In this document: in pieces, positions 1,597-24,968 of the stretch
Position numbering within the stretch: the stretch's first letter is position 1
How the letters are laid out: each line of letters starts with the position of its first letter
Source of the DNA: an uncultured Phycisphaerales bacterium
Lineage (GTDB): Bacteria; Planctomycetota; Phycisphaerae; Tepidisphaerales; Tepidisphaeraceae
Direction of reading: 5' to 3'
NCBI GenBank assembly: GCA_963755915.1
Contig: CAVWLP010000002.1
Location: 3,008,001 to 3,072,000, forward strand
DNA length: 64,000 bases
Translations under genes and position numbers: made by a program
The notes under the pieces: generated by a model
Database searches by the model: none
What the model was told of the DNA's origin: nothing
Seen by the model: the letters and a program-made list of their open reading frames with translations, nothing else

Positions 1597-1629
1597 GGAA
1601 CGCCCAACGCGCCGCGGTGGGGCATTTCC
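1597..1629. repeat. REP-like palindrome, intergenic variant
   Basis: GGAACGCCCAACGCGCCGCGGTGGGGCATTTCC, similar to the copies at 3271 and 5055. Confidence 0.55.
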
Positions 1630-1657
1630 ACTATTCTAAAAGACAAAAAAAACGCCC

Positions 1658-6900: not shown

Positions 6901-7438
6901 AAGCTCAACGAGCCGCTGCTAAAGCTCTGGTCCCAGGTCCTGCGCCGTCCCCGATTCCCAAATCCTCATCCAGGCCATCTCCAACGCCCACCGCGCCCGC
7001 ATCCTCTCCACTTTCGATTCTCACGGCATCTCCGCCAACCGCGTCCAATTCGCCCCGCGCTGCGCCCGAAACCAATATCTCCGCGCCTACGACCGCATCG
7101 ACATCGCCCTCGACCCCCTCCCCTACAACGGCATCACCACCTCCTGCGACGCCCTCTGGATGGGCGTCCCCGTCATCACCCTCCTCGGCCGCACCGCCGC
7201 CGGCCGCGCGGGTTCAAGCATCCTCCAAAACGTCGGCCTCCCCGACCTCATCGCCAAATCCCCCGAAAATCTCATCCAAATCGCCTCCACCCTCGCCGCC
7301 GACACCGCCCGCCTCACAGATCTCCGCTCAACCCTCCGCGCAAAATTCCAATCCTCCCCCCTCATGAACTTCCCAAAATTCGCTCGCGACATGGAAGCGG
7401 CTTACCACCAGGCCTGGAAAACCTGGTGCGCACGATGA
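3980..7438 (+). CDS. TPR-GT41-TPR-GT41 tandem O-GlcNAc transferase-like protein; frameshifts near 6580 and 6945
   Basis: ATGA overlap with the upstream stop. Two full sets of GT41 motifs across ORFs 3959-6649, 6622-7467 and 7160-7438. Confidence 0.85.
5055..5104. repeat. REP-like palindrome with nested 24-bp insert within GT41 domain 2
   Basis: GGAACGCCCACGG[ACTTCGGCGAGCTCAGTCGAGCCG]CGCCGCCGTGGGT. Confidence 0.8.
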
Positions 7439-7440
7439 CT

Positions 7441-7498
7441 ATTTCGAATTTCGGGTTTCGAATTTGATTCGAATTTCGAGTTTCGTCATTCGAATTTC
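7441..7498. repeat. TTCGAA-rich short repeat tract between convergent genes
   Basis: ATTTCGAATTTCGGGTTTCGAATTTGATTCGAATTTCGAGTTTCGTCATTCGAATTTC; overlaps the hrpB stop. Confidence 0.7.
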
Positions 7499-9967: not shown

Positions 9968-10021
9968 CTTCGCATCTTGACCGAAACGCGGCCCGATTTC
10001 ACCGCCCGCTGCGCTAGCAGC

Positions 10022-11140
10022 CTATTTCAGTTTTTCCGGATTCAGTCCCAGCAGTTCCTTTACGACAAACCGCCCATCCCGCCGGATCACTTTGCCGTCG
10101 AACCACACTTCCCCTCCGCCCGCTTCCGGCGTTTGCCGCATCACCAGGTCCCAGTGGATCTTGCTCTTGTTCCCGTTGCTCGCATCGTCGTAACAGGCGC
10201 CGGGCGTGAAGTGAATGCTGCCGGCGATTTTCTCGTCAAAGAGAATGTCCTTCATCGGCTTCGTCACGTAGGGGTTGAACCCAATCGCGAACTCGCCGAC
10301 GTACCGCGCGCCGGGATCGGTGTCGAAAATTTCGTTCAGTTTCTCGGTCGCCGAGCTGGTAGCTTCAACGATTTTTCCGTTGCGGAAAACCAGCCGCACG
10401 TCGTTGAACGTCGTGCCGCGGTAGACGGTCGGGCAGTTGTAATGGATGACGCCGTTCACGCTCGTTTTCACCGGGGCGGTAAAAACCTCGCCATCGGGGA
10501 TGTTGACCTTGCCGTCACACGGAATCGCGGGAATGCCCTTGATGCTGAAGCTAAGGTCCGTATCCCCCGGTCCCTTGAGCCGCACCGCGTCCGTCTTCTC
10601 CATCAGCTTTTTCAACGGCTGCATGGCCCGGCTCATCTTCGCATAATCCAGCGTGCAGACGTTGAAATAAAAATCCTCGAACGCCTCCGTGCTCATCTCC
10701 GCCATCTGCGCCATCGAAGGCGTCGGCCAGCGCAAAACGCACCAGCGGGTCTTCGCGATCCGCACCTCGCGATGAACCTTTTCCCACACCGTCGATTCAT
10801 AAAGCTTTTGCTTGTCCGCATGGACATCCGAAAGCTCGGAAACGTTCTGGCTGCCCCGCGCGCCGATGTAGCACTGCACCCCTTCCATCTGCAATCGCTC
10901 GACGCGGGAGATCAGGTCCCACTGCTCCTTCTGGCCCACAAGCTGGAGAGCGCGCGTGATCGGATTGCTCTTGAGCAGAACCAGCGGATGGCCGCCGGCT
11001 TTGGCCGCGTGATTGATCAGAGCGATGGTGAATTCCTCCGGCACGTCGATCGCTTCAATCAGAATCTTTTCCCCTTTTTTCACCGCGCAGGAGTAGTTGA
11101 TGAGCATATTCGCGAAGTGGTCAATGCGTGGGTCTAGCAT
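10022..11140 (-). CDS. Aminopeptidase, M29 family (AmpS/aminopeptidase T-like)
   Basis: MLDPRI start; NIPDGEVFTAP, GEFAIG, LFDEKIAGSIHFTPG and IHWDLV motifs. Confidence 0.92.
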   Translation of the reverse strand: MLDPRIDHFANMLINYSCAVKKGEKILIEAIDVPEEFTIALINHAAKAGGHPLVLLKSNPITRALQLVGQKEQWDLISRVERLQMEGVQCYIGARGSQNVSELSDVHADKQKLYESTVWEKVHREVRIAKTRWCVLRWPTPSMAQMAEMSTEAFEDFYFNVCTLDYAKMSRAMQPLKKLMEKTDAVRLKGPGDTDLSFSIKGIPAIPCDGKVNIPDGEVFTAPVKTSVNGVIHYNCPTVYRGTTFNDVRLVFRNGKIVEATSSATEKLNEIFDTDPGARYVGEFAIGFNPYVTKPMKDILFDEKIAGSIHFTPGACYDDASNGNKSKIHWDLVMRQTPEAGGGEVWFDGKVIRRDGRFVVKELLGLNPEKLK

Positions 11141-11204
11141 GGCGGTTATATACTGGAGGGGAGAGGAAGTTGCGAGTGCCGCACGTGAACGTGTGAGCGG
11201 CAGA

Positions 11205-11405
11205 TCAGCGCTGTACAGCGCCTTTGACGAGCTCTTTGGCAAGCTCATCCCCGAGCGAGCTTAGATCGAACTGGATCAGCCCTTTTCGCACCAGGGAAAG
11301 GAGGACAGGCTCCGGCGTCCGGATCGAATTGCGTCTTCGATCCGCCAGTTCAAGGAGGAACTTGCGCTCTTCGTCGGTGATGTTGATCCCGGTCGCGATT
11401 CGCAT
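11205..11405 (-). CDS. Small hypothetical protein, possibly winged-helix-like
   Basis: 66-aa ORF with GAGG upstream of the ATG; LVRKGLI...LSSLGDELA. Confidence 0.45.
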   Translation of the reverse strand: MRIATGINITDEERKFLLELADRRRNSIRTPEPVLLSLVRKGLIQFDLSSLGDELAKELVKGAVQR

Positions 11406-11465
11406 GGCCTCATAATAAATCGGTCCGATTTGTGCTGTGCTTTATTTCCAAAAACCGCCCCCCGC

Positions 11466-11494
11466 TTGAAGGGCGGCGGGTGTCGCGATACCAT
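11466..11494 (+). promoter_or_regulatory. Original host tRNA-Val promoter, displaced to the left junction
   Basis: TTGAAG-17 nt-TACCAT, 11 nt upstream of the tRNA 5' fragment at 11506. Confidence 0.7.
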
Positions 11495-11504
11495 CAAAAA
11501 GCCT

Positions 11505-11527
11505 CGGGCGATTAGCTCAGTTGGCCA
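11505..11527 (+). repeat. attL core of element 1 (tRNA-Val 5' fragment)
   Basis: CGGGCGATTAGCTCAGTTGGCCA, identical to 23040-23062. Confidence 0.95.
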
Positions 11528-11714
11528 ACACACGGCAAATGTAAGCGGGGGCGACTCCAAGCAGTTACAATCCACTGATGTTGCGAGCGCAGCATATTTG
11601 ACAGCAGTTGGTCCGGATCAGGGACTCGCAATCGTCTGCGAACGCTGGACAGCCCTACCGGCGATCTTGCGAAAAGTAATCGTGGCAATGGTCGAGGCAG
11701 CCGTGGAAAAGTAA
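11505..11714 (+). other. Orphan reading frame that becomes the integrase C-terminus in the excised circle
   Basis: RAISSVGQ-HTANV...GLAIVCERWTALPAILRKVIVAMVEAAVEK*, in the same phase across the core as int 21669. Confidence 0.7.
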
Positions 11715-11736
11715 CAGCACATTGCAGTCCTATCGG

Positions 11737-12057
11737 TCAGGGAGATAGTTTAGCCGTGCTCTTTCCGGCGAGCTCGACACCGGCCTTCGAAAGGATTTCT
11801 GCTACTTCACGGGCGTTCTTCAAAATGACTCTGTTCTCATCAGTATCGGTAAGCCCAAAATTCTCAGGCTTCGCCCCCACAGCAACTAAACAGTGCTTTA
11901 ATAGCACCTGTTCCTGATGTCCTACACCGAAGATAGCCAATTCGTTGCTCTTTTGCGAAAACTGGATTTGACCGCCGTAATAGTTCAATACCTCGATCGC
12001 AGTATTCACCGAGATTTTGCCACCACGCAACTTGCTCTTCCCGCCCCAGCCTGACAA
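11737..12057 (-). CDS. Hypothetical protein (low-GC cargo)
   Basis: 106-aa ORF, TTG start preceded by GAGG. Confidence 0.55.
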   Translation of the reverse strand: MSGWGGKSKLRGGKISVNTAIEVLNYYGGQIQFSQKSNELAIFGVGHQEQVLLKHCLVAVGAKPENFGLTDTDENRVILKNAREVAEILSKAGVELAGKSTAKLSP

Positions 12058-12394
12058 TCAATCCTCAAATGCAATCAATATACCGTGCTTAGCAACTATA
12101 AAACTACACGTGGTGAATGTAAAGACAAATCGATTTCCACAAATAAGTTAAATACCGGCCCAAATCAGTAATCCGCGCTTGCGTCAAAGATTTGAAGTAT
12201 TCTGGTCACTAGGCTTGGGTGGCCAAATACCTTCGATACTTCCCGTGTCTTGGTGACCACGGTGCGTTAGAAGGAGTTTGAGGCTGTGTGCCTCTCATCT
12301 GGCAAGTATGTGAGACGCCGCCGTCGCCAGCGTTTTGGGCGCGCTCGGCGGCGGAGTTTCGATAGACCTTTTAAGTATAAGAAAGAGGAACCAC

Positions 12395-12560
12395 TTAACA
12401 CTTTGATTTATATAAACCGCGACGGACAGTTTTTGTCCGAAAACGGACAATTTGTGGTTTTCGACGGCCAAAAAACCGTTGCAATATTGGCCAAATAGTG
12501 ACAGGGTGCTGGTAGTTCCTGACCAAAAAAGCGGGGGTAAGATGGCCGAAAACGGACAAA
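12395..12560. other. Putative plasmid replication origin (AT-rich stretch plus short repeats)
   Basis: TTTGATTTATATAAA, palindrome CGGACAGTTTTTGTCCG, and repeated CCGAAAACGGACAA / GGCCAAA just upstream of rep. Confidence 0.45.
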
Positions 12561-13162
12561 CATCGCGAGCGGAAACGAATCAGGTCGCCACGAAACGTGG
12601 GCTTCCGGTTTACCGCGTCAATCCCAGCATCCCGCCGTCGAATGGCTTGGCAACGCGACAGAAGCGTTTTGAAGTGCCAGGCGGCAAAGCTGCCGTCATC
12701 GTGGACAACGGCACCGGCGAAATCAAAGGCATCGGCGGCATGGGTTTCTGGTGGCAAGAGGAAGTGGATGCCAGCCGGTTCGTGAAACTGTTTCTGGATG
12801 GCATCAAGCAAGCCTGCGGGCTTTCCAAATCCGGCATGGCGGTCTTTGAATTGGTGTACCACCAAATCAGGGAAAATCCCGGCAATGACAAGATCGAACT
12901 GAGCCAATACATGGCACAGGATCGCGGCCTGAATGAACGAACCTTCCGCCGGGGCCTGCGGGAATTGCTCGAAAAGGAATTCTTGTACCGCAGCACCAGC
13001 GACGGCGTTTTCTTCATCAACATCCGGTTCATGTTCAACGGCGACCGGCTCGCGTTCGTGCGGACGTACCATTTGAAAGGTGCGAGCCGCCAACAGGAAT
13101 TGCCGCTTGGCGATGCCCCCGCGTTGCCCGGTCCAACCGTGCGCGAGCCGACGGGCGACTGA
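12542..13162 (+). CDS. Plasmid replication protein, RepL-like
   Basis: EEVDASRFVKLF...TFRRGLRELLEKEFL...FFINIRFMFNGDR pattern typical of RepL-type HTH initiators. Confidence 0.75.
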   Translation: MAENGQTSRAETNQVATKRGLPVYRVNPSIPPSNGLATRQKRFEVPGGKAAVIVDNGTGEIKGIGGMGFWWQEEVDASRFVKLFLDGIKQACGLSKSGMAVFELVYHQIRENPGNDKIELSQYMAQDRGLNERTFRRGLRELLEKEFLYRSTSDGVFFINIRFMFNGDRLAFVRTYHLKGASRQQELPLGDAPALPGPTVREPTGD

Positions 13163-13206
13163 ACGCTACGTCGTCGCAATTGATTTGCGCGTTACAATTC
13201 CACCCG

Positions 13207-13781
13207 ATGAAACGTTTCCGTCGAGGGCTATTCAACGGGGTGGCCGGGATCTCGCTGGTCCTTTCTCTCGCCGGGGCGGCATATGGGCACGCAGTTACAG
13301 TTACGCCGAAGACCTCATCTATTACGGACACTCCGGGGGCGTCGCCATGCACGACGCGAAAGGCCGACTCGCGTTCGTATTCGAAAATGTGATGTCGATG
13401 AGCCCGCATTTTGAGTATTACTCTTCGACGCCCGTTCGCGGACTCGATTACGCGGACCCCCGGAGGACCCCTACGCTGTGGAACCGTCTGGGCTTCTACA
13501 TCGTTCGATTCACCAGAGCGCGCGATATCCAGAAGATGACTCCTCCACCGGGCATGAGTTGGCCGCCGGTGGTTCGGTACACCGACGTCGTCGTCCCCTT
13601 CTGGCTCGTGCTTCTGGTGCTGGCATTGCTGCCTTTCTGGAACTTCGTGCTGCCTATTCTCCGGGGCGCCCGCCTCCAGCCGGGCTATTGCGCGAAATGC
13701 GGCTACGATCTTCGCGCCACGCCCGACCGTTGCCCAGAGTGCGGGACAATCCCGCCGAAAAAGGAAATCATTTCAAGCTAA
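13207..13781 (+). CDS. Membrane protein with C-terminal zinc ribbon (frameshift near 13275)
   Basis: MKRFRRGLFNGVAGISLVLSL N-terminus, TM helix VPFWLVLLVLALLPFW, CAKCGYDLRATPDRCPECG. Confidence 0.7.
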
Positions 13782-13819
13782 ACGAATCGCCGCAATTGCG
13801 GAAAATCGGAAAATCGCAT

Positions 13820-14053
13820 TTACGACGGCGTTCCGCCGGGCGGGAATCGTTTTTCCAGCAAGTCGCGGACGACATCCGCCATGATGAGGTTTTCAATCGC
13901 ACACTGGCTCTTGATTCGCTTATGCAGGCCCAGCGGCACGTCGATGGTAAGCCGCTTCATTGGCTGGCCCGCATTCTTGTCGTTAATCCATTCATCCGGC
14001 GATAGTCGTGCGGGCGATCCGGCGGGTTTGGAGCGAAAGGCAACTTTCTTCAT
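13820..14053 (-). CDS. ParG-like ribbon-helix-helix partition protein
   Basis: 77 aa, KRLTIDVPLGLHKRIKSQCA...MADVVRDLLE; overlaps the parA stop. Confidence 0.8.
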   Translation of the reverse strand: MKKVAFRSKPAGSPARLSPDEWINDKNAGQPMKRLTIDVPLGLHKRIKSQCAIENLIMADVVRDLLEKRFPPGGTPS

Positions 14054-14679
14054 GCCCCAAACTCCAAAACTTCGTTTACGAGCGCGGTTAACTCATCCCC
14101 TGCCTGGCTGTCGGGTGATGTCTCGAAAACGCTCTGGCCATGCCCTGCCGACTCGGCAAATGCCACTCGCTGGCAGATTGCGGATTTCAACACCGGCACC
14201 GGGTATTCAGCCAACGCGTCCACCACGTCGCGGCCCAACGCCGTATTTACGATTTTACGATTAATTACAAATGCCGATTTCAGGCCGGGCTTGAATACCA
14301 TCGCCTCCTGCAACAGGTCCACGATTTCCTTCGCGGCCCACACGTCGTAAGGCGACGGCTGCACAGGAATCAATACAACATCGCTGGCCATGATGGCCGA
14401 CCGGGCGACTTCGTACACCCGTGGCGGACCATCGATCAGAACATGCTCATAGCCCTGGGCCAACGCGGGCAATTCCTTGTGGATGGATGACCGGGGCAAT
14501 CCAGCCACGGGAAACAGCGGATCGCTATTTCGTGACGCCGCCCAATCGAGTGCCGAACCTTGCGGGTCGGCATCGACCAGCAACACCTTTTTCTTGCGTC
14601 GGGCCAGTGCATCGGCGATGTGAACGGCCAGCGTCGTTTTGCCGACGCCGCCCTTCTGATTCAGTAGTCCGATGATCAT
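14050..14679 (-). CDS. parA: ParA (ParF-type, type Ib) partition ATPase
   Basis: MIIGLLNQKGGVGKTT, DADPQGS, IDGPP, PVQPSPYD. Confidence 0.93.
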   Translation of the reverse strand: MIIGLLNQKGGVGKTTLAVHIADALARRKKKVLLVDADPQGSALDWAASRNSDPLFPVAGLPRSSIHKELPALAQGYEHVLIDGPPRVYEVARSAIMASDVVLIPVQPSPYDVWAAKEIVDLLQEAMVFKPGLKSAFVINRKIVNTALGRDVVDALAEYPVPVLKSAICQRVAFAESAGHGQSVFETSPDSQAGDELTALVNEVLEFGA

Positions 14680-14689
14680 ATTTTCACCG

Positions 14690-14781
14690 TGAAATTCGCG
14701 ATTGGGCGGAATTGCGATTTCACGGTTATCACGAATTGCGGAAGTGCGCAAATACAGAATTGCAGATTTACGATTTACAGG
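14690..14781. promoter_or_regulatory. Putative centromere/operator repeats upstream of parA
   Basis: GAATTGC occurs three times and GATTTAC twice; related CAATTGCGGAAAATCGGAAAATCG lies downstream of parG (13790-13818). Confidence 0.45.
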
Positions 14782-15036
14782 AGTTTCCCGGGGAAATTCC
14801 TCCTTAGCAGTGCTAAGGGAAGATGTCTGTGGGTACTCAAGAATTTTCCACTCATTATGTCTAAACGGGGCCATGGGTTCCGAAGGGCATCTCGAATCGG
14901 TGCGAATCCGCCACAAATCGGTTGCCGACACATGAAATAATCCGCTCTTTCAAGCCAATAGATGGTAGGTGGCTGGCGTGCATCGGCACACCTCTGGTTT
15001 AACGATTTGTAAAGCAATCTTGGGGTAAACTGGCAG

Positions 15037-17673
15037 ATGCTTCGCATCATTCAAAGCAATTCCGCTGCCGGGGCCATGAGCTATTACAGCACGGCGGACT
15101 ATTACAGCGAGGGCCAAGAGCTACTCGGCCAATGGCGCGGGCAGGGTGCCGAACGGCTTGGCCTGACCGGCGGCATCGACAAGGCGGCGTGGGACGCCCT
15201 GTGCGATAACCGCGACCCGGCAACGGGGCTGCCTCTTACGGCCCGCCGCAATCAGGATCGTACCGTCGGCTATGATTTCAATTTCCACGTCCCCAAGAGC
15301 GTGTCTGTGCTCTACGGTCTGACACGGGATGATCGCATCCTCGATGCATTCCAAGCGTCCGTCGATGAGACGATGCGGGATATCGAGCGCGATATGAAAA
15401 CCCGCGTGCGGGTGAACGGTAAGAACGAAGAACGCACGACCGGCAATATGGGCTGGGGCGAGTTCACGCATTTCACGTCGCGGCCCGTGGACGGCGTACC
15501 TGATCCCCACCTCCACGCCCATTGCTTCGTTTTCAATGCGACGTTCGACGAAAGCGAAGATCGTTGGAAGGCGGGTCAGTTCCGGGAACTCAAGCGTGAC
15601 GCTCCTTTCTTTGAGGCCGCGTTTCATTCTCGGTTCGCCCGGCGAATGGAGGAATTGGGCCTTGAGGTCGAGCGAACGAAAGCCGGATGGGAGTTGGCCG
15701 ATATGCCCAAATCAGTCCTCAAAACCTTTTCCCGCCGAACGGCCCAGATTGAGCAAACGGCGAAAGAGGCGGGCATTACAAATCCGGCGGATAAAGATTC
15801 CCTCGGTGCCCGGACGCGGGAAAGCAAAAAGAAGGATATGCCGTTTTCGGAACTACAGGCCGAATGGCGGTCCCGGTTGCCCGTCGAGGATCAGGACGCC
15901 ATTAACCGCGTTGCGGCAAGCATCGGTGGTCCGGCATTGCCGGAAGATCCCACGCTCGGCAAAGAGGCGGTGACGTTCGCCGCCAATCACTGGTTCGAGC
16001 GCAATTCGGTCGTACCGGAGCGAACGGTGTTGGCAAAGGCACTGAAGCACGGGGTAGGGAAGGCGAGTTTGCAATCGGTGGAGTCCGCCTTTCGGAAACA
16101 CGATCTGGTCTTCGGCGAGCGGGATGGCCGGAAATTGGTTACGTCCAATGACGTGCTGATGGAAGAATCGCGGATGCTGAAATTTGCCCGCGATGGACGG
16201 GGCACGTGTCCACGGCTATACGACGGGCCGCATTCCTTCAACGATGCCAAGCTCAACGCCGGGCAATGTCGGGCGGTTGAGCATGTGCTGAATTCCTCCG
16301 ACCGGGTCATCATCGTCAACGGCGCTGCCGGCGTCGGCAAAACCACAATGATGCGTGAAGCGGTGGCCGGTATCGAAATCGGCGGCAGCAAAGTTTTCAC
16401 CTTCGCCCCTTCTGCCGACGCCAGTCGCGGGGTGCTCGCCCAAGAGGGATTTGAGAATGCCGACACGGTTGCCCGGCTCCTCGTCGATGAGAAATTGCAG
16501 CAACAAATCAGGGATCAAGTTATCTGGATCGATGAGGCCGGTCTGATTGGAACCAAAACTATGGGCCGGGTATTCGACTTGGCCGACAAACTGGATGCCC
16601 GTGTAATCCTCTCCGGCGACCGCAGGCAACATGGATCGGTGGAACATGGTGCGGCACTGCGTTTGCTCGAAACTGAGGCCGGGTGCCTTCCCGCTGAAAT
16701 CAGGGACATTCAACGGCAAAAAGGGGAATACAAACAGGCCGTGCAATCGCTTAGCGATGGCCGCACCGAAAAGGGATTCCAGCAACTCGACCATTTGGGC
16801 TGGATTAAAGAGGTTCCCGAAGGCGAACGGTACAAGGCCCTGGCCGATGAATACGTTGCGACCGTCGCCGCCGGGAAATCAGCTCTGGTTGTCAGCCCTA
16901 CGCATTCTGAAGGCGAGCGGATTACGGGTCACATCCGCGAATCGCTCAAAGATTTGGGACGGGTGAATACGGATGAACGCGAGGTTTCGATTCTGGAAAG
17001 ATCGAACCTGACGCAAGCGGAGCGTGGCGACGCGGTGAATTACGCTCCCGGCGACGTGCTGGTGTTTCAGCAGAACGGCAAGGGATACCGCAAGGGCGAG
17101 CGAATCGTAGCCGGAGAGGGTGCGTTGCCGCTCGATCAGGCAAGCAAATTTCAGAAGTATCGCACCCGAAAGATCGCAATTGCTGAGGGTGATCTCCTCC
17201 GCGTCACGCAAAATGGGAAAACCGCCGATGGCAAGCACCGGCTCAATAACGGCGCGCAATATGTGGTGGAGGGATTCACCCGCCAAGGCGACATCCGGCT
17301 CAACAATGGGTGGACCATCGACAAAAACTTCGGGCATCTGGATTATGGGTACGTCGTCACGAGCCATGTGAGCCAGGGCAAGACGGTGGATCGCGTTTTC
17401 ATCGGGCAATCGTCCGAATCGTTCCCCGCGTCATCGCGGGAGCAATTCTACGTGTCCGTCTCGCGTGCCCGGCAGCAGGCGACGATTTACACCGATGACA
17501 AGGAATCGCTGCTCGATGCGGTGAGCCGTTCCGATGATAGGATAACGGCGACGGAATTCGTCATGGATCGGGGCTATCATGCACGCGGGATGCACATTCA
17601 GCGGATCGCGGCGATGACGCCCGCACGGGATGAACGCACGCCAACACGCGAGGGGATCGAATATGACAGATAA
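15037..17673 (+). CDS. MobF (TrwC-like) relaxase-helicase
   Basis: YYSTADYY, GYDFNFHVPKSVS, HFTSR..DPHLHAH, GAAGVGKTT, IDEAG, HVSQGKTVD. Confidence 0.95.
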   Translation: MLRIIQSNSAAGAMSYYSTADYYSEGQELLGQWRGQGAERLGLTGGIDKAAWDALCDNRDPATGLPLTARRNQDRTVGYDFNFHVPKSVSVLYGLTRDDRILDAFQASVDETMRDIERDMKTRVRVNGKNEERTTGNMGWGEFTHFTSRPVDGVPDPHLHAHCFVFNATFDESEDRWKAGQFRELKRDAPFFEAAFHSRFARRMEELGLEVERTKAGWELADMPKSVLKTFSRRTAQIEQTAKEAGITNPADKDSLGARTRESKKKDMPFSELQAEWRSRLPVEDQDAINRVAASIGGPALPEDPTLGKEAVTFAANHWFERNSVVPERTVLAKALKHGVGKASLQSVESAFRKHDLVFGERDGRKLVTSNDVLMEESRMLKFARDGRGTCPRLYDGPHSFNDAKLNAGQCRAVEHVLNSSDRVIIVNGAAGVGKTTMMREAVAGIEIGGSKVFTFAPSADASRGVLAQEGFENADTVARLLVDEKLQQQIRDQVIWIDEAGLIGTKTMGRVFDLADKLDARVILSGDRRQHGSVEHGAALRLLETEAGCLPAEIRDIQRQKGEYKQAVQSLSDGRTEKGFQQLDHLGWIKEVPEGERYKALADEYVATVAAGKSALVVSPTHSEGERITGHIRESLKDLGRVNTDEREVSILERSNLTQAERGDAVNYAPGDVLVFQQNGKGYRKGERIVAGEGALPLDQASKFQKYRTRKIAIAEGDLLRVTQNGKTADGKHRLNNGAQYVVEGFTRQGDIRLNNGWTIDKNFGHLDYGYVVTSHVSQGKTVDRVFIGQSSESFPASSREQFYVSVSRARQQATIYTDDKESLLDAVSRSDDRITATEFVMDRGYHARGMHIQRIAAMTPARDERTPTREGIEYDR

Positions 17674-18076
17674 GTTTCTGCATCATCGCCCCGGGCGTGT
17701 GCTTGACGACAGATTTGATTCGGGCCCGTCAGCGGATTCCGGCGGTGTCGATGATTTTCATTCGTTTGGCTGGCTACGCGGTATTCGCGAGCGGGCCACA
17801 ATGCTCGAGCTGCGGAAGAAATCGGGCGATGTCCTGGCCATTGGCTATAGCTGGATTGAGTGTGTGGAATTCAATCCAACCCAAGGGATTACGTTGCACG
17901 TTCATGGCGACAAGATTCACATCAAAGGCCGCAATCTGAACGCCGAAGTCCGGCCCGAAGTTCGACTGTTTCAAGGAATCGCCCGTCACCGCGTGGCATG
18001 GGTGCAGGAAGCGGACAGGCCGCGAAACCTGACGGGGGACAAGCAACTGACGATTATTGACCAAATCGCCTGGTGA
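17663..18076 (+). CDS. Hypothetical protein coupled to the relaxase
   Basis: ATG overlaps the relaxase end; GAGGGG upstream. Confidence 0.65.
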   Translation: MTDKFLHHRPGRVLDDRFDSGPSADSGGVDDFHSFGWLRGIRERATMLELRKKSGDVLAIGYSWIECVEFNPTQGITLHVHGDKIHIKGRNLNAEVRPEVRLFQGIARHRVAWVQEADRPRNLTGDKQLTIIDQIAW

Positions 18077-18160
18077 CGCTTGATCAAGCCTCAGCCAAAT
18101 CTTGTCGATGCCAATAAATGATAAGAGTTCCGCGTTCGTGGTTATCAACCGGATTTAGAA

Positions 18161-18670
18161 ATGTGGTTACCCAAGGACGAACGGCGTTTGCTTGCCGGTT
18201 ACTTCAAGATAATTGGCGAAATTGATAAGGAACGCATTTATCGCGAATCTGATCTAATTCCTCTACTGTGGTGGCGACAAAAGATTGAATCCATCAAGAC
18301 ATATCGAGAATCAGTAGGCAGGTCGGATGGTTCGGCCAGCATGGAAAATATGACGGCGTTCAAGCGCGAGGTCAAACAGCTACTCGCCGATATGGCACGG
18401 ATAAAGAGAGCCAACAAGTTGTTGGTCGCCCGGAAGATGGTGGCGATTCGACCACATGCCCACGAGCAGAATGTCATCCTAATTTCATTGACCGTTAAGG
18501 GATTCGACTTTGGAAGGCGATATGGCAATTGACTAGATTCAACGGGACTTTGGTTTGCCTATTACAAGAATCACTGGATTTGGCTAATTGTGGCTGCCGT
18601 CGCGGGCGGCATTATTCCGAAATTAATTGATCGTATCGGAGCGATTATTGCCGCCTTGCACCGACCGTAG
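18161..18670 (+). CDS. Hypothetical membrane-anchored protein with an internal TGA at 18530-18532
   Basis: 123-aa ORF; the frame stays open after TGA (LDSTGLWFAYYKNHWIWLIVAAVAGGII...) to TAG 18670. Confidence 0.5.
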
Positions 18671-19297
18671 CTAGACCCCGTGTCCATGAATGAGCCGCCG
18701 CACAGAAGTTCTCCCAATACCGAGCCGTTTGGCGATCTGGCTCTTGCTGATTCCCGAAAGAAACAGCTTGTTTGCCTCATCCGCAAGTGCTGTCACTGTC
18801 GCGGGTCTTCCGTGCGGCTTCCCGTTCTTCCTGGCCTCTGCGATTCCGGCTTTGACGCGATCCCGCAGGATGTCACGCTCGTATTGTGCAAACACTGCCA
18901 GCATCCCGGCCATTGCCTGGCCGCTCGGTGTCGTGAAATCCAACGAATCGTTCGGCGAAACAAAATTGACGCCCACTGCGTGCAATTCCTTCAATGTCGT
19001 CACAAGGTCGAGCAACGAACGGCCCCAGCGATCCAGCTTCCAGACCAGGACGATATCAATCTCCCGTCGCATTGCAGCGTGCAGCACTTCATTCCTTGCC
19101 GGACGATCTTTCGCCCCGGACCCGACTTCCTCAATCTGCATGGCGACAGTCCAGCCCCGTCGCTCGGCGTATTCCCGCATCGCCGAAATTTGCAGCGGCA
19201 ATGTCTGCTGGTCGTGGGTCGAAACACGTGCGTACAACCCGACGCGTAAACGGTCGCCTGCCCCCTGGCCAAAAACCTCCCCCCGATTTTCGGTCAT
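18671..19297 (-). CDS. Serine resolvase/invertase with C-terminal HTH
   Basis: YARVST, VWKLDRWGRS, GRP, IAKRLGIGRTSVRR. Confidence 0.93.
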   Translation of the reverse strand: MTENRGEVFGQGAGDRLRVGLYARVSTHDQQTLPLQISAMREYAERRGWTVAMQIEEVGSGAKDRPARNEVLHAAMRREIDIVLVWKLDRWGRSLLDLVTTLKELHAVGVNFVSPNDSLDFTTPSGQAMAGMLAVFAQYERDILRDRVKAGIAEARKNGKPHGRPATVTALADEANKLFLSGISKSQIAKRLGIGRTSVRRLIHGHGV

Positions 19298-19416
19298 GCC
19301 CCCTCGATAATTCAACTGCTTGCAGAAAACCCTTTACACCGGCCAAAAACTATAGTTTATGGTCAGGTCAGGACGTATCACGATTCAGCAAAAGGGACAA
19401 GAGAAATTCTCGCCGC

Positions 19417-19857
19417 ATGGAAAACCTGCTCACGATTGCACTGGAAGCCCATAACAATGATCTCAATCATCACCGCCGCTATGAAATTACCGTCGGTCGG
19501 GATTTGCTGGACGATTGGACGCTGAGCATCCGCTACGGTCGCGTCGGCGGCGGATATCAAACGCAAAAGTTTTCCGGGAAAGACAAGCATCAAATCCGTG
19601 CTATCATTCGGGAACGGTTACGGCGTAGGCGATCCGCCCCAAAACGGATTGGATGTGCATACCGGGTAACGACATTCGACGCTGTTGCGGAATTCGACAC
19701 ATCCGCATGGTTGCCGAATGATTCGATTGTCTTTCTTCCTGACCCACCATTTTCCCTGACCCCGATGGTGGACAAAATTGCTTTCAGCGGAGCGAAGCGG
19801 GGTCAAGGTGGAACCGTCGGAGAAGAGGCTCCATGTACTCATGGAGTAGCACCTTGA
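19417..19857 (+). CDS. WGR-domain protein
   Basis: RRYEITVGRDLLDDWTLSIRYGRVG. Confidence 0.75.
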   Translation: MENLLTIALEAHNNDLNHHRRYEITVGRDLLDDWTLSIRYGRVGGGYQTQKFSGKDKHQIRAIIRERLRRRRSAPKRIGCAYRVTTFDAVAEFDTSAWLPNDSIVFLPDPPFSLTPMVDKIAFSGAKRGQGGTVGEEAPCTHGVAP

Positions 19858-19969
19858 GGCCGATTCGTGGAGCGTACAATGTCGGAATTGGGGGCAGGGA
19901 AAGCTTGCCCTAGAAATCGCTCCTCCCTCAGAAATAATTGCTCTACGCTTTTAATCAACTTCTGCTGGA

Positions 19970-20422
19970 TCACTTACGCGGGTCGAACGGAACCGGCCTA
20001 CCACATTTTTCACAGAAGCGTGATTCGGGGTGAAAATTGAATGGAAACGCGTGAACCATGGTGGAGTTTTCAGTCAGGACCGCCATGACTCCACTGCATG
20101 TTGATGCAAACACACCATTGTTGTACTGCATTCCTGTTGTGCTACCCGCGAAAAGGATAAGGTTCTTGCGTCCCCAGTCGTCAATTTCAAGACATCCAGA
20201 CGCCATTGCTGACACCATGTGATGTTGATAGCTGTTCCAAGTCGAATTAAGGAATACCGAGTTGATCGAATAAATCTCAGTTGGGACGGTATGTTTTACA
20301 TATTTTTCCAACTGGTAGTCGTAGGGATATTTGCCTCCTGCATTGGCCTCAAGCGTTGAAGAATCGACGGGCACTATGAGACCTGAATTCCGTGCGCATT
20401 CATGGCAATAATATTTAGACAT
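19970..20422 (-). CDS. Hypothetical protein with terminal CxxC pairs (low-GC cargo)
   Basis: 150 aa, CHEC at the N-terminus and CEKC at the C-terminus. Confidence 0.7.
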   Translation of the reverse strand: MSKYYCHECARNSGLIVPVDSSTLEANAGGKYPYDYQLEKYVKHTVPTEIYSINSVFLNSTWNSYQHHMVSAMASGCLEIDDWGRKNLILFAGSTTGMQYNNGVFASTCSGVMAVLTENSTMVHAFPFNFHPESRFCEKCGRPVPFDPRK

Positions 20423-20520
20423 GGCGAAGGTGGTTTTGTAACACGCCGCCGCTAACAGGCTGCCCGTGCAGTTATCCGAGCACCTAACTCTATCGGCTGG
20501 ACCGCAAAAATAGCAAATAC

Positions 20521-20859
20521 TTACGGCATTTCTTCCCGAAGTTTGTTTTGCCAGTCCTGGGCGGTATGGAAGACGTGCAGGATATGGACCTCTTTATCGT
20601 CGAAATTGTAGACGGCCACATGGCCATGCCCGCTGGTCCTCCGCCTGATGACGACATAACGCAAATCGGGCCGTGTGCTGACTTTCTTGCCCCTGGCATA
20701 GCTGCTGGCCAGACCGGCGATGCTTTCCTTTAGATACCGGAGATAAGCATCGGCATGGGGGACGCCGTAACGTCCAGCGTTCCATCGCCAAACATCGTCG
20801 AGTTCATCAATCGCCGTCGGGGAGCGAATGACCGTCAGCGGGGATTGTTCCGAAGCCAT
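20521..20859 (-). CDS. Type II toxin, RelE/ParE family
   Basis: SPTAIDELDDVWRW...HVAVY...VHILHVFHTAQDW. Confidence 0.8.
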   Translation of the reverse strand: MASEQSPLTVIRSPTAIDELDDVWRWNAGRYGVPHADAYLRYLKESIAGLASSYARGKKVSTRPDLRYVVIRRRTSGHGHVAVYNFDDKEVHILHVFHTAQDWQNKLREEMP

Positions 20860-21113
20860 TCCGCCCTACGTTTCGCAAGTTCCGCGTCCGCTTGGTCTGC
20901 CGTATAGAAATTCCCGGCTTTGATTTCCGCTTCCGCCTTGTCAATGTGGGCAAGCCGTTCGGGCGTGAAAAGATGGTCGAGGTTTTCGGTTCCCTCGTGA
21001 AGATCATAGCTCAAAACGTCGGCGATGTATTCGTCAACGGTCGAGAACCCGGCTTCCGTCGCCCGGCGTTGGACCTCTTTGTAAAGATGATCGTTGAGTT
21101 GGACTTGTTGCAT
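20835..21113 (-). CDS. Putative antitoxin (RHH/ParD-like)
   Basis: Acidic small ORF upstream of and overlapping the toxin; EAGFSTVDEYIADVL. Confidence 0.7.
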   Translation of the reverse strand: MQQVQLNDHLYKEVQRRATEAGFSTVDEYIADVLSYDLHEGTENLDHLFTPERLAHIDKAEAEIKAGNFYTADQADAELAKRRAEWLRNNPR

Positions 21114-21417
21114 AGGCAATCTTTCTGAACGGCTGTCCGACATTATAACGGCATTTGAGGCCGATTGTCATTGAGAAATTGGCCCCTGGCATTGCAGGAT
21201 TCGACCCGAACAGGCACACGCCGCGTTGCGGCGGCCGGAGATTTGCCGGTCTATTCAGGTCGCTTGAAGATTTTTGGTGAAAGATTTCGGCCCTTTGACG
21301 CAAATAGTCTTAGGGTGTGTTCTGCGGCCACGGGCAGCGTCCGACCCCATTGTACAGTCAATGGAAATAAGGCCGCGCGCTCCCGCGCGGTCGGTGTCGA
21401 ACAACGGAGATTTCACG

Positions 21418-21648
21418 ATGCAGATTCAAACAATCCAAACGCAAACGGAAAATCCTCCCGCTTTGCTGACTCTGGCGATGATCCGGCGATATTATGTTCC
21501 GATTGCTTCCCGCACCCTGTTCCGGCTGATTTCGTCGGGGCGATTCCCCAAGGCGGATATCGGCATCGGCGGGAAGCTGCGGCTATGGAAGCGTGAAACG
21601 GTTGAAGCGTGGATCGCGTCCAACGCGGTGCGGGTGGGCGTAGAATAG
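21418..21648 (+). CDS. Excisionase/AlpA-like HTH protein
   Basis: ASRTLFRLISSGRFPK...GGKLRLWKRETVEAWI; directly upstream of int. Confidence 0.8.
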   Translation: MQIQTIQTQTENPPALLTLAMIRRYYVPIASRTLFRLISSGRFPKADIGIGGKLRLWKRETVEAWIASNAVRVGVE

Positions 21649-21668
21649 CGTGAAAGCGATGGTGCTTT

Positions 21669-23306
21669 ATGGCCAGTGTTTTCAAACGTGGCGGCAAGAA
21701 AAACCGCGAAGGAAAGTACGTCGCATCGTTCTTCGATGAGAATGGGAAGCGTGTCAGCCGAAGCACGGGCACGACGGATTACGATGCCGCTTGCCAGGTT
21801 GCGGCACGATGGGACACCGACGTTGCCCTGCGGCGCCATGGCGTGATTGACGCGACGCAAGCCCGCATCGCCGATCAGAACCGGCAGCATATCAGGGAGC
21901 ATGTCGCCGATTATCTGGCCCATTGCAGGCATGTCGGGCAGGACAAAGCCCACATTGCCATCAAAACATCGCAGTTGGCCAAGCTCGTGGCTGGAATCAA
22001 CGCAACCCGGCTGTCCGATCTTGAGCCGAACCGGGTAGAGCGCTATCTGGCCAATCTGGTGACAGCGGGCAAATCACACAGAACGCACAACCAAAATCGG
22101 GCCACGGCAGTCGCGTTCATGCAATGGTGTTTCGAGCAAGGGCGAGTAGCGTCCAACTTGCTGAAAATCGTCCCGACGCTCAATGAAGCCAAGGATCGAA
22201 GACGTGTGCGGCGGGCGTTGAGCGAAGATGAATTGTCCCGACTGCTCGCGGTATCCGATGAACGTCGGCCCTACTACCTGTTTGCCTATTACACCGGCTT
22301 GCGGGTCAAGGCCGTCAAAGCCGCTATGTGGGGCGACGTGGATTTCGACAGTGCTTTGATTCGCGTAAAAGTCGGCAACGCCAAGGGCAAAAAGGATGAC
22401 ATTTATCAGCCTTTGCATCCCCGATTGCTGCAAGAATTGCGGCGGATGAGAAGTGAAATGCCGTTTGCATCCCAGGCTGATCCGATTTTTCCCGGTGTGC
22501 CGCTGGTCAAGACGTTTCACCGGGATTGCCAGCGGGCCGGAATCGAGCGATATGACGCGGACGGCAGGCAACTGGACCGTCATGCCCTCCGCACCACGCT
22601 CGGCACTCACCTGGCCCGTGCGGGCGTTCTGCCGCAACTGGCGATGAAGGTGATGGGCCACAACGACGTGCAGACCACGATGAAGCATTACACGGCGTTA
22701 CGTCTGGCGGACACGGCCAAGGCGATGAACGCTCTGCCGTCCATCGAACCGAACGCCAATGCGAATGCCGCGGCCCTGCGGGCGACGGGAACGGACCCGG
22801 CTAATGTGCCGTCAAATTTGTCGGGTTTCGGCGCACAGCATGTTCGACAGCAGTTGTGCGGCTCGGATACGCAAAATCTGACACCCACTGTCGCTGATAG
22901 CGAAACGACAAAATCGTCCGCACAAAAAACTGTGGTGTTCATTTCGCCCCAGAAAAACAGGGGTTTTGGCGATATTCAGCAGCGTGCGACAGCCATCGAC
23001 TTGAAGGAAATCGCCGCTCGCGATACCATCGAAAAAGTACGGGCGATTAGCTCAGTTGGCCAGAGCGTACGGATCACACCCGTGAGGTCACAGGTTCGAG
23101 CCCTGTATCGCCCATTTCCACTTCTTCGCACTGCGTCGCATTATCTCGCACAGAGTCGCAAGGCCCCGCAAGCGTGGGACTTACGGAATCTTCGCCGGAA
23201 CTGGGTGCGATATCCTGCGACGCCTTGCGAGCAGATGCTGCACCGGATTCTGCACCGCCTGTCTCAGACGCTGCTTCCGCCGCCTTTGCAAAATGCTCAT
23301 CGGTGA
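21669..23306 (+). CDS. int: Tyrosine integrase; frame reads through attR and tRNA-Val
   Basis: YTGLR, HALR, MGH and HY catalytic motifs; no stop before the att core at 23040. Confidence 0.93.
   Translation: MASVFKRGGKKNREGKYVASFFDENGKRVSRSTGTTDYDAACQVAARWDTDVALRRHGVIDATQARIADQNRQHIREHVADYLAHCRHVGQDKAHIAIKTSQLAKLVAGINATRLSDLEPNRVERYLANLVTAGKSHRTHNQNRATAVAFMQWCFEQGRVASNLLKIVPTLNEAKDRRRVRRALSEDELSRLLAVSDERRPYYLFAYYTGLRVKAVKAAMWGDVDFDSALIRVKVGNAKGKKDDIYQPLHPRLLQELRRMRSEMPFASQADPIFPGVPLVKTFHRDCQRAGIERYDADGRQLDRHALRTTLGTHLARAGVLPQLAMKVMGHNDVQTTMKHYTALRLADTAKAMNALPSIEPNANANAAALRATGTDPANVPSNLSGFGAQHVRQQLCGSDTQNLTPTVADSETTKSSAQKTVVFISPQKNRGFGDIQQRATAIDLKEIAARDTIEKVRAISSVGQSVRITPVRSQVRALYRPFPLLRTASHYLAQSRKAPQAWDLRNLRRNWVRYPATPCEQMLHRILHRLSQTLLPPPLQNAHR
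23001..23029 (+). promoter_or_regulatory. Element-encoded replacement promoter for tRNA-Val, inside int
   Basis: TTGAAG-17 nt-TACCAT; same boxes and spacing as 11466-11494. Confidence 0.75.
23041..23114 (+). tRNA. tRNA-Val(CAC)
   Basis: Acceptor GGGCGAT/ATCGCCC+A, D-arm GCTC/GAGC, anticodon arm TACGG-ATCACAC-CCGTG, T-arm ACAGG-TTCGAGC-CCTGT; CCA not encoded. Confidence 0.96.
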
Positions 23307-23500
23307 TCTGCAGGTAGTGATCGCGCGCTACCACCTCGCTGTTGCCAATCCAGGCACACACCACGTGAGCAGGCCAGCTTTCCGTCAGTTCCGTCTGGCG
23401 TGAAGACCGAAGATTCTGAAAAAGCTTTGGTTACGGCTCGATCCCTGCCTTGGCAAGAATCCAGAGAAATTGTGTGCGAATGTTCATCTGTTCCGACGTT
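23074..23500 (-). pseudogene. C-terminal remnant of a second tyrosine integrase, reading into the tRNA antisense strand
   Basis: ILAKAGIEP*PKLFQNLRSSRQTELTESWPAHVVCAWIGNSEVVARDHY...MGDTGLEPVTSRV*; in-frame TAA, N-terminus missing. Confidence 0.8.
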
Positions 23501-23577
23501 CATCTGTTCTGATTCTCGGAATTTCCACGCGACATTTTGCATATTACATCGGCCGGTCGATTTCCGTAGTCCCGTCG

Positions 23578-24968
23578 TCAGAAGCTCAAATTCAGGCGCA
23601 TGCCCAGGATCACCGCCGTACTTGTGTTCGGCAGGGAGGGGTCATTGACTTGCACATCAAGAGCAAGGTGAGTCGCCGGCGTGATTGCTATGTTGTAGAA
23701 GGCCTCAAACCCTTGCCCGAAATCGTCGATACCCAGCAGACCGTTGATGCGCGTGTCCTGGAATCCGGTGTAGTAGTAGCCGACGCCAAAGACGTCGTTG
23801 CCGCGCGATGGAATCATTCCGCGTCCGCCCAGGCCAATGCTGGCAGACCATTCGACCGGATTGGTTTGCTGATCGGCGAGGCCGGCGCGGGCAAAAAAGC
23901 CAAAGCCCTGATGATCGGGCACGCCGTCGGCAAGATTGATCAGGTTGTTGGTAGGGTCTTTGACAAAGAGATATTGCCAGGTACTCCAGTAGACCGCCCA
24001 TGTGCTGTTCTTTTGAGCAACTGACAATTTCTGGCCCGGCTGTAATATCAGCTCTCCACCAACCTGGTTAAAGTTCTGATCGAAGGAGTAGAGTCCGCCG
24101 ATGTTCATTCCCCCAGGCAGCGTAACCAAGCGATATTGAAAGTCCGCCTCCGCACTCCACGACGCGCCTTTTCCGAAGTCTTCGAAACCGGTGGTCGTGG
24201 AGGAATCAGTCGTGTTGATCAAGCTGCTGCTGACGGAGATATTCCGCGTCGGCATCCACCGAACTGCCAGGCCCAGACTGCTATATGGCAGCCTTAACGC
24301 CATCGCGGAATTGAAGAGAAAGTTGGCGTTCATGAACTGGCTCTTGCCGCGGCCGGAGGCGAATTCGTTGAGGTCGCCATCGAGCGTGTCGAATTTTCCG
24401 ACGGATACCGCCAATTTCTCGCAAAGGACCTGTGTGTAATTCAGATCCGTGACGGTGATAGGGACACCTTCATCAAGCTGCGGTGTCAGCGGGAAAAACG
24501 CGGTGGTATTGACCGGCAGGATCGTCCCGGCGATTCCATTAACCGAGTTGCCGTAGCGCGACTCTGCCCGAATCGTCACCAGCGCACCGGCAGAATTCCC
24601 ATGCGCATCAGGTCCAGGTCGAGCAGGTAGTCGAGGTGCCCGCCGTACTCCGTGCCGCTCTCCGATCCACCACTGACGACGCTCTGCATGTACTGCGTCC
24701 AGTCCACATCAAGTTGGACCCCCTTATTGGCTAGTTTGGTCCGCGCACCGTACCAATCGCCGGTGAGATATGAGCGATTCCAAAGATCACCGCCATAGTC
24801 GGGAACGGACAATAAGCCTTCTGGCTGGGTTGTAGTCGCAGTTGCACGCAACGTCGTCGCCGGGGGCGATTCGCCGTCGGCCGCGAACGTGGGTGAGGCC
24901 ATCACAAGCAACATTGCCAAAGCGGGCCCGCTCAACCAGCCGCTCACCGATGAACTGATTCGCATCAT
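23578..24968 (-). CDS. Carbohydrate-selective porin, OprB family (frameshift near 24580)
   Basis: Signal peptide, YLTGDWYGARTKLANKGV, FEAFYNIAITP, C-terminal F. Confidence 0.85.

Follow-up and report, generated by a model that had tools for sequence, protein, structure and literature searches.

A Phycisphaerales mobile element on the 5' side of tRNA-Val(CAC), with its attachment site and a candidate tRNA promoter inside the integrase gene

Insertion on the 5' side of a tRNA-Val gene

The window analysed here, a stretch of 64,000 nt from the genome of an uncultured Phycisphaerales bacterium (G000; throughout, G, L, X and P numbers denote genomes, loci, sequencing runs and database proteins, respectively), contains the ~11.5-kb body of an integrated element (11528-23040), which we read as an integrative mobilizable element (IME) and which is absent from another genome of the same genus, G001. 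The rightmost gene of the element encodes a tyrosine integrase (Int), and its open reading frame (ORF; 21669-23306, + strand, 545 aa in the integrated state) runs into the gene for tRNA-Val(CAC) (23041-23114, + strand), which is recognized by both ARAGORN and Rfam. The RF00005 match to this tRNA, at 62.1 bits (gathering score 29), is the sole Rfam match in 11000-24000. The tRNA gene is reconstituted, with nt 1-22 derived from the element and nt 23-74 from the host.

A repeat search returned one 74-nt direct repeat (11454-11527 and 22989-23062, 76% identity), the exact part of which is 23 bp long and corresponds to the attL core (11505-11527, + strand) and the attR core (23040-23062, + strand). 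This block consists of 1 nt upstream of the tRNA followed by tRNA nt 1-22, namely, the 5' strand of the acceptor stem, the 5' strand of the D-stem and most of the D-loop. Thus, 22 of the 23 bp are tRNA sequence, in agreement with the original prediction, made from the letters of the window alone, that the duplicated DNA is the tRNA 5' end. The attL core is a displaced 5' fragment of the gene (tRNA nt 1-22 are matched by BLAST with 100% identity at C2:3019506-3019527), and the 5' end of tRNA-Val(CAC) is present in G000 at these two places only.

The left flank of the element (10300-11527; 1,228 nt) was run as a query against 61 genomes, G000 and 60 relatives. In G001, the entire query was matched with 93% identity, and an M29 aminopeptidase gene, the promoter and the complete tRNA-Val(CAC) gene are contiguous (locus L004), with the 11.5 kb missing; this is the empty allele that had been anticipated. 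The aminopeptidase gene, the tRNA and right-flank sequence of the window type are likewise contiguous in G003 and G012. These arrangements identify 11528-23040 as inserted DNA: the DNA to the left of 11505 is that of the host, with the original promoter, and tRNA nt 1-22 and the promoter-like sequence now in front of them arrived with the element. Contigs of run X1 span both attL (11371-11927, 0 differences) and attR (22141-23114, 1 difference), although X1 may be the source sample, so this confirmation is not independent.

The locus displays the hallmarks of an Islander-type island in a tRNA gene (tDNA): an intact tDNA, a displaced fragment in the same orientation, an integrase gene inside and an empty site in a relative. 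The Islander configuration filter allows for a 5' fragment upstream of the tDNA. By contrast, the three classical tDNA sublocations (anticodon loop, T-loop and 3' end, with duplication of the 3' part; Williams, 2002, as summarised in passages of bioRxiv 10.1101/2020.11.02.365908) do not accommodate a duplicated block that consists of tRNA nt 1-22.

Downstream of the tRNA, the sequence of G001 differs from that of the window. We considered a second island in G001 as the cause and rejected it: the G000-type downstream sequence, common to G003 and G012, is itself the C-terminal remnant of another recombinase gene. The empty-site test is unaffected by this difference because it rests on the left flank and the tRNA. 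The remnant (23116-23424, - strand; ...LRSSRQTEL...AWIGNSEVVARDHYLQ...) belongs to a different tyrosine recombinase, lies directly after the tRNA and points at its 3' end, and the codons through which the window's int reads beyond the tRNA are antisense to it. There are three copies of this recombinase sequence in G000, with ~90% identity; the other two are full-length ORFs of 436 and 453 aa, one of them behind tRNA-Val(GAC). Hence, the tRNA-Val genes are flanked here by mobile elements on both sides.

The integrase gene and its linker

Residues 1-355 of the integrase comprise a putative arm-binding domain and the core-binding and catalytic domains, residues 356-464 form a linker that extends through the promoter boxes and tRNA nt 1-22, and residues 465-545 result from read-through of the tRNA body and host DNA. 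The only Pfam matches are PF00589 (aa 184-344; E 1.5e-19, 70.9 bits versus 27.1) and a weak PF02899. Across 77 relatives, R212, H305, R308 and Y341 do not vary, and at least 90% of the sequences retain K239 and H331. We take R212, K239, H305, R308, H331 and Y341 to be the catalytic residues, presuming their roles from the order in which they follow one another along the sequence.

As the original prediction had it, the attR copy of the repeat lies within the integrase ORF. The offset between the two cores, 11535, equals 3 x 3845, and an ORF (11430-11714) crosses attL in the int frame, such that both cores read RAISSVG. Given that the offset is divisible by three and the frame is shared, int in the excised circle would begin at 21669, cross the core and end with a stop codon at 11712-11714. 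The last part of this attP form (11528-11714, + strand; frame shared with 21669-23062) would comprise the linker and a C-terminal module (...ERWTALPAILRKVIVAMVEAAVEK). The module is conserved, measures ~30 aa and is encoded beyond the core, at ~11610-11711. The ending D.L..(I/V)(I/V)..W..LP..(I/L)R..I.A(M/L)V.AA is encoded at attL in seven of eight elements, that of the window included, and when the window module is aligned with the C-terminal ends of seven full-length integrases from the database, W73, L76, P77, R81, A86, V88 and A90 are invariant.

Among 12 copies in which int and the tRNA are co-directional, the ORF remains open through the promoter region into the tRNA in eight: five stop at a TAG in the D-loop and three read on (the window, element 1 of G000 and L023), whereas the remaining four copies are truncated or broken. 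The D-loop stop corresponds to tRNA nt 20-22 (GGCTAG or GGATAG). The genus of the window has GGCCAG in the D-loop where relatives have GGCTAG; the change of TAG to CAG removes the stop, and the ORF continues for 81 codons, from 23063 to 23306. These last 81 codons are read-through into host DNA and lie outside the design of the protein; P0003-P0005, which are close relatives, each terminate at a different and unrelated place. Of 375 database relatives (E no higher than 1e-20), the best 120 were inspected for their C-terminal ends, and 28 of these terminate exactly with ..SVG or ..AVG.

The linker, ~110 codons between the end of the catalytic domain (approximately residue 355) and the core, evolves very differently from the domains. 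When the window is compared with L023, the domains show 0.06/0.05/0.23 differences per site at codon positions 1/2/3 and the linker 0.29/0.29/0.38, and three other pairs give a similar picture. This codon-position pattern suggests that the amino-acid sequence of the linker is barely constrained, although its frame stays open. For P0118, a relative available in full length, AlphaFold2 (77-row alignment; mean predicted local distance difference test score, pLDDT, of 80.6) yields a model that is folded up to residue 379, disordered at 380-500 (pLDDT 40-50) and ends with two C-terminal helices (pLDDT ~80). The model includes an N-terminal three-stranded sheet (residues 13-38), and its best match in the PDB is the full-length lambda Int (1z1b, E 5e-11).

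A 21-nt motif, CAGCATNTNNGACAGCAGTTG, has only two matches in the window, one in each att arm, and none of 100 shuffled sequences reaches two. The match in the P arm, CAGCATGTTCGACAGCAGTTG (22836-22856, + strand), lies inside the int linker, in a segment conserved in L023 and L024, and that in the P' arm, CAGCATATTTGACAGCAGTTG, at 11590-11610 (+ strand). The two copies are read in different frames, which argues for conservation at the DNA level, and we consider them candidate arm-type Int-binding sites. The linker would thus serve as a carrier of DNA signals, namely, a candidate arm site, the promoter and the tRNA 5' end.

The extent of identity between partner cores provides some indication of the point of strand exchange. 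In most pairs, identity ends at nt 22, but it ends at nt 20 in the attL of G112 (mismatch at nt 21) and at nt 18 in the 'mid' copy of G000 (mismatches at nt 19 and 21) and in G010 C69 (nt 19-21). Identity ending at nt 18 places the exchange at or before that position, most likely in the D-stem or the beginning of the D-loop. The left limit of the crossover is unreadable because the tRNA 5' end is kept for its function.

Promoter boxes, related elements and gene content

Upstream of both copies of the tRNA 5' end, we found the same two boxes, CTTGAAGG (11465-11472 and 23000-23007) and TCGCGATACCATC (11483-11495 and 23018-23030). In both places, they yield TTGAAG, 17 nt, TACCAT, 11 nt and the first nucleotide of the tRNA, and they are identical between the copies (8/8 and 13/13), whereas the 17-nt spacer is largely different; this much of the earlier claim can be read directly from the sequence. 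The copy at attL (11466-11494, + strand; -35 TTGAAG at 11466-11471, -10 TACCAT at 11489-11494) would be the native host promoter of tRNA-Val, left behind by the integration, and the same arrangement precedes the intact tRNA in G001. The copy at attR (23001-23029, + strand; -35 TTGAAG at 23001-23006, -10 TACCAT at 23024-23029) is a candidate promoter borne by the element, situated within int codons (...DLKE...DTIEK...).

To be scored as positive in a geometry test, a site had to contain TTGNNN-N16-18-TANNNT ending 9-14 nt before a given position. At random positions of G000, this was the case for 237 of 200,000 (0.12%). By comparison, the test was positive for 11 of 12 element-borne copies, whose spacings never depart from 17 and 11 nt, and for 14 of 17 native ones (13 of 16 without L017, a locus of the unpublished genome G014). 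Box conservation across integrase homologues, to which the original prediction had pointed as a check, is thus borne out. Among the positive element-borne copies, integrase identity falls to ~30%, and the tRNAs are of two species, Val and Arg(CCT). All five sites in G000, two native and three element-borne, conform to TTGnnn-17-TA(C/G)CAT-11-tRNA; element 2 of this genome retains the boxes even though its upstream sequence is otherwise unrelated and its int ORF stops 178 nt before the tRNA. A similar promoter (TTGNNN-N16-18-TANNNT, no more than 70 nt upstream) is found at 21 of 58 other tRNA genes of G000, the big tRNA cluster excluded. A cluster of 26 tRNA genes, all on one strand, occupies 2.9 kb outside the window (C2:3699152-3702079).

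The native copies are situated in intergenic DNA adjoining the M29 gene, which indicates that the boxes are a host signal reproduced by the elements rather than a by-product of integrase coding. From 22997 (the -35 box) onward, the element copy is 89% identical to the native upstream region of G003, so that 'captured homologous copy' of the tRNA-Val upstream region is a more exact description than the 'mimic' of the original prediction. The other half of that claim, retention of a promoter copy to keep the tRNA expressed, gains support from the comparison, and transcription of the rebuilt tRNA most likely starts from the element-borne promoter, which would give it a leader only a few nucleotides long. 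The native tRNA-Val promoter of G003 (L006/L053) is closer to the element-borne version than to the native version of either G000 or G001; it may be either the source of the captured copy or the leftover of a lost element.

Relatives of the integrase (E no higher than 1e-20) are encoded in 55 of 141 genomes of the family. A tRNA is present in 26 of 29 loci fetched from other genomes. In nine loci, int is co-directional with tRNA-Val (CAC, GAC or TAC) or tRNA-Arg(CCT), with the tRNA at the end of the ORF; in 15, it is convergent with tRNA-Lys, tRNA-Gln or tRNA-Gly, the ORF running antisense through the tRNA 3' part, as in the layout of Mx8, discussed below; two loci are empty tRNA-Val sites. 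Trees were built from the N-terminal 365 aa only (116 rows; five proteins under 380 aa and P0002 were left out). The 33 of 116 rows labelled as D-arm (5'-side) integrases by their C-terminal peptide signature all fall on one side of a branch with FastTree support of 100, and a quick IQ-TREE analysis requires one change. Together with the nine co-directional loci, this single clade answers for the 5'-end targeting that the original prediction had looked for in int homologues.

The window's element is one of four family elements in G000, the others being located at tRNA-Val(GAC) (two) and tRNA-Cys(GCA) (one), all outside the window. The former two lie in tandem 5' of tRNA-Val(GAC) at C2:3529165-3566837, with 5' fragments of 22 nt (at 3529165) and 18 nt (at 3538784); their integrases are 63% and 44% identical to that of the window, and each junction has its own TTGnnn-17-TAnCAT-11. 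The fourth 5'-side element (C2:2207046-2214801) encodes a 476-aa integrase ORF that ends at nt 24 of tRNA-Cys(GCA), with an 18-nt copy of tRNA nt 2-19 located 7.7 kb upstream; a clear -35/-10 pair is not visible there by eye. Eleven of the 116 relatives (P0042, P0052, P0062, P0070, P0071, P0088, P0105, P0112, P0118 and others) read in sense through an entire tRNA-Gly-like sequence (...AGVTQLVECQPSKLNVEGSSPF...). In the full-length P0088 and P0118, the tRNA-derived part extends no further than the anticodon loop, and the C-terminal module comes next; these peptides suggest that 5'-side integration also takes a second form, with the anticodon loop as its site. Finally, in G005 (L023, 18189-19170), an attL-like copy (core and P' arm) and the aminopeptidase gene lie inverted ~9.5 kb downstream of the junction between int and the tRNA, with a lone tRNA 3' part between this junction and the inverted copy, an arrangement that looks like an inversion between att sites.

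The guanine-cytosine (GC) content of the element region is 0.51-0.59, compared with 0.59-0.65 to its left. Besides int, the element encodes a RepL-like protein with a weak match (12452-13162, + strand; PF05732, E 3.2e-4, 20.7 bits against a cut-off of 20.3; no NCBIfam match), a ParA/MinD-type ATPase (14050-14931, - strand; PF13614, E 1.4e-24; PF01656, E 7.3e-21), a MobF-family relaxase with an SF1 helicase domain (15037-17673, + strand; PF08751 TrwC, E 1.1e-70; PF13604, E 7.7e-45; NF041492 MobF, 202.8 bits against a cut-off of 100), a serine resolvase/invertase (18671-19315, - strand; PF00239, E 1.1e-42; PF02796 HTH_7) and a ParE toxin (20521-20859, - strand; PF05016, E 3.4e-12). A small ORF overlapping and upstream of the latter (20835-21143, - strand), which has no Pfam match, is a putative antitoxin by its position only. 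Directly upstream of int lies the gene for an excisionase-like HTH_17 protein (21274-21648, + strand; PF12728, E 6.8e-5, residues 77-117), the score of which, 23.5, is below the gathering score of 27; its real start is probably internal, near 21415. No family of type IV secretion or conjugation-pore proteins was matched among the 14 element ORFs scanned. Given the MobF relaxase and the integration module and no pore family among these ORFs, we read the element as an IME. Relatives in two named Phycisphaerales metagenome-assembled genomes have no more in common with it than the xis-int module, the region of the resolvase and a single small ORF, with 82-92% DNA identity; the elements are mosaic.

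Elsewhere in the window, ARAGORN calls a tRNA-Gly(TCC) at 27175-27263 (- strand), which may be a false call, given its odd length of 89 nt and the coding-like sequence in the 70 nt upstream. The first 10 kb (1-10000) show a very negative GC skew, -0.33 to -0.54 per kb; an ORF within this region (3959-6649, + strand) reads by eye as an ordinary protein of the tetratricopeptide repeat plus glycosyltransferase type.

Mechanism, known systems and significance

We consider it quite likely that the locus represents an 11.5-kb IME with attP inside the 3' part of int, which integrates at the D-arm of tRNA-Val(CAC) and supplies its own promoter and tRNA 5' end. The sequence comparisons directly show the insertion with its limits and empty site, the conserved promoter geometry, the conserved frame and module, and the clade-wide use of the 5' side. 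The attP in the 3' part of int would recombine with the D-arm, such that the element ends on the 5' side of the tRNA. Because integration cuts the tRNA off from its own promoter, the element would carry tRNA nt 1-22 along with a sigma70-type promoter of native geometry. Arm-type sites, promoter and tRNA 5' end would all be written into the long, poorly constrained but always-open linker of the integrase, which, in the excised form, would join the catalytic domain to the conserved, helical ~30-aa C-terminal module. Integration would part this module from the enzyme, whereupon the prophage-form ORF of relatives would stop at the D-loop TAG and that of the window would continue to 23306. We infer that the promoter is active, where exactly the crossover falls, and that loss of the module changes the activity of the enzyme as in the integrase of Mx8. 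The original prediction that this DNA is at once att arm, int coding sequence and tRNA promoter therefore holds on each count at the level of sequence comparison: the insertion is absent from G001, the frame is open in eight of 12 copies with a module beyond the core, and the geometry of the boxes is conserved.

Several points weigh against this interpretation. Translation of the linker would follow from the conservation of its frame and the module beyond it, and there is almost no constraint at the protein level. The promoter motif is lacking in one element-borne copy, L037, and in the native copies L010, G024 attL and G010 C69, and the promoter rows are not independent of each other, given that window, L023 and L024 are close kin, as are element 1 of G000 and L033. 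The D-arm label of database proteins is derived from their C-terminal peptides, not from their DNA. The joints 11527>23063 (attB) and 23062>11528 (attP) were not seen in the contigs of runs X1, X2, X3 and X11, which are fragmentary and of low depth, so that absence there is no evidence. Twenty runs with the locus were listed, all in contig form and three of them RNA (shares of 0.07-0.11); compared over 11000-23600, the contigs gave no starts or ends, and those of the RNA run X11 contained no usable signal at 23000-23114. Lastly, the tRNA could instead originate from read-through of int.

The last point can be extended into an alternative, in which the boxes are not a promoter but P-arm sites for Int or a host factor, or simply linker residues, and the tRNA is cut by RNase P from the int read-through transcript. 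The boxes do lie inside an ORF that is kept open, int and the tRNA are co-directional, and no terminator is apparent by eye between them. Nevertheless, we find this alternative improbable: the same geometry recurs at the native intergenic sites of genomes without the element, element 2 of G000 has the boxes despite its early int stop and unrelated sequence, and the linker is without amino-acid constraint. Moreover, the -35 box is ~55-60 bp away from the crossover, a distance to which core-type sites of tyrosine recombinases do not extend. Still less probable, indeed very remote, is the explanation of the 74-nt similarity as the decaying remnant of a longer attP/attB homology, that is, a captured tRNA locus in which the boxes are unselected. 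The 89% identity between the element copy and the native G003 upstream region from 22997 onward does fit a homologous captured copy, but divergence between the two copies in the window is patterned, with identical boxes (8/8 and 13/13) and a different spacer, and the 17/11 spacing is exact in all 11 positive element-borne copies, with Int identity down to ~30% and two tRNA species.

A further possibility, compatible with integration of an IME at the D-arm as proposed above, is that the window copy is trapped: with the module lost and 81 foreign codons added, the resident Int would be inactive, and excision would need the Int of a related element. The module is indeed 11.5 kb away from int, no attP/attB junction was seen in the contigs examined, the four co-resident family elements of G000 could act in trans, and the same logic has been proposed for archaeal 'suicidal' integrases in the accessible passages of PMC8371274. 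We regard this possibility as rather unlikely, considering that the catalytic domain and the excisionase-like gene are intact and that junctions missing from low-depth contigs carry no weight. In the case of Mx8, moreover, the prophage form is described as less active, not dead (passages of PMC4701971).

Integration on the 5' side of tRNA genes, attP inside int and promoter replacement have each been published already. Reverse-orientation (5'-side) tRNA-integrating elements are reportedly the subject, judging by its title, of the 2002 paper of Zhao and Williams (J Bacteriol 184:859); here, a whole integrase clade is involved, with a D-arm crossover, attP inside int and comparative evidence for a replacement promoter. 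Use of the 5' side is characterized as 'considerably less frequent' than that of the 3'-distal part in a passage that cites Zhao & Williams 2002 along with archaeal cases (Krupovic et al., 2019; PMC6563490). Islands upstream of arg2 in Klebsiella pneumoniae, for which the D-loop was called a novel sublocation, resemble the element in their position upstream of the tRNA and in the sublocation, but belong to another phylum, and the accessible passages describe neither attP in int nor a replacement promoter (bioRxiv 10.1101/2020.11.02.365908). The dusA islands similarly replace the 5' end of their target gene with element sequence, with putative -10/-35 boxes before and after integration; unlike in the present case, however, the target is protein-coding, and attP inside int is not reported in the passages available (Farrugia et al., 2015; PMC4482086).

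Among archaea, integration of pTN3 leaves a rebuilt tRNA-Leu 'separated from its original promoter' and a disrupted int, according to passages of Cossu et al. (2017; PMC5495485). As in pTN3/TKV4 and the SSV-type archaeal integrases, attP lies here inside the int ORF, and integration splits int. The SSV-type domain is Phage_integr_3 (PF16795), and self-disrupting recombinases are stated to be exclusive to archaea (passages of PMC8371274). The integrase described here is bacterial, and PF16795 is not reported for it by Pfam. In addition, whereas the SSV-type split, as described in these sources, separates Int(N) from the catalytic Int(C), here it removes a small C-terminal module, and the promoter, start and catalytic domain stay together.

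A bacterial parallel in layout is Mx8 Int of Myxococcus xanthus (NC_003085), a 533-aa protein with attP inside the 3' part of its gene and a MerR/HTH gene directly upstream; the position of the HTH_17 gene before int corresponds to that of uoi before Mx8 int. In both cases, the attP core lies within int coding sequence and the C-terminus is exchanged, in Mx8 for 13 residues in place of 112, giving a less active form (passages of PMC4701971). However, the tRNA piece of Mx8 is the 3' end, antisense to int, as in the convergent group of the present family, whereas here it is the 5' end; since Mx8 uses the tRNA 3' end, no promoter need be supplied there. Sequence kinship with Mx8 Int was considered and rejected (BLASTP E 0.059; no Myxococcus phage in the tally by organism of the 45 matching phage records, with a limit of E 1e-5). 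Parallels to lambda Int are the three-domain fold predicted for the relative P0118, the direct repeats in both att arms and the excisionase-like partner gene; unlike lambda Int, the integrase has an extra, predicted disordered linker of ~110-120 aa and a C-terminal helical module, and its gene overlaps its own attP.

A search of the literature found no description of a promoter inside an integrase ORF for a 5'-targeted tRNA, the nearest being the arg2 islands, the dusA islands and pTN3. Neither did it find these features combined in one bacterial clade, a D-loop TAG serving as integrase stop, or comparative evidence for an int-embedded promoter, although the supplements of the arg2 preprint may hold more on these three.

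More tentatively, and at somewhat under even chances, we propose that this large family of Phycisphaerae integrases acts as a self-cutting switch. The gene would always span attP, integration would always remove the module, the stop of the D-arm clade would be the D-loop TAG, and the free linker would carry the arm sites and the tRNA promoter. In its truncated prophage form, the enzyme would disfavour either re-integration or excision, making the family a bacterial counterpart of the archaeal 'suicidal' integrases. The recombinase would then record which state the element is in. Over many visits, host tRNA promoters would bit by bit be replaced by copies that elements had brought in, a process suggested by the promoter of G003.

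These observations have practical consequences. Elements of this kind will be overlooked or wrongly called by island-mapping tools that seek 3' fragments or do not permit a tRNA to overlap with coding sequence, and gene callers will report integrases with spurious C-termini. The locus also offers a testable example of coding sequence, promoter and recombination site in one stretch of DNA, and a clade-level case for the D-arm as a sublocation of tRNA integration. The preference for tRNA genes is usually explained on the assumption that elements use the 3' end, which leaves the host promoter in place; this locus and its clade show how the reverse arrangement is put together and kept up. That int is split by its own reaction in a widespread bacterial family bears on the bias between integration and excision and on whether self-disrupting integrases occur in archaea alone, as has been claimed.

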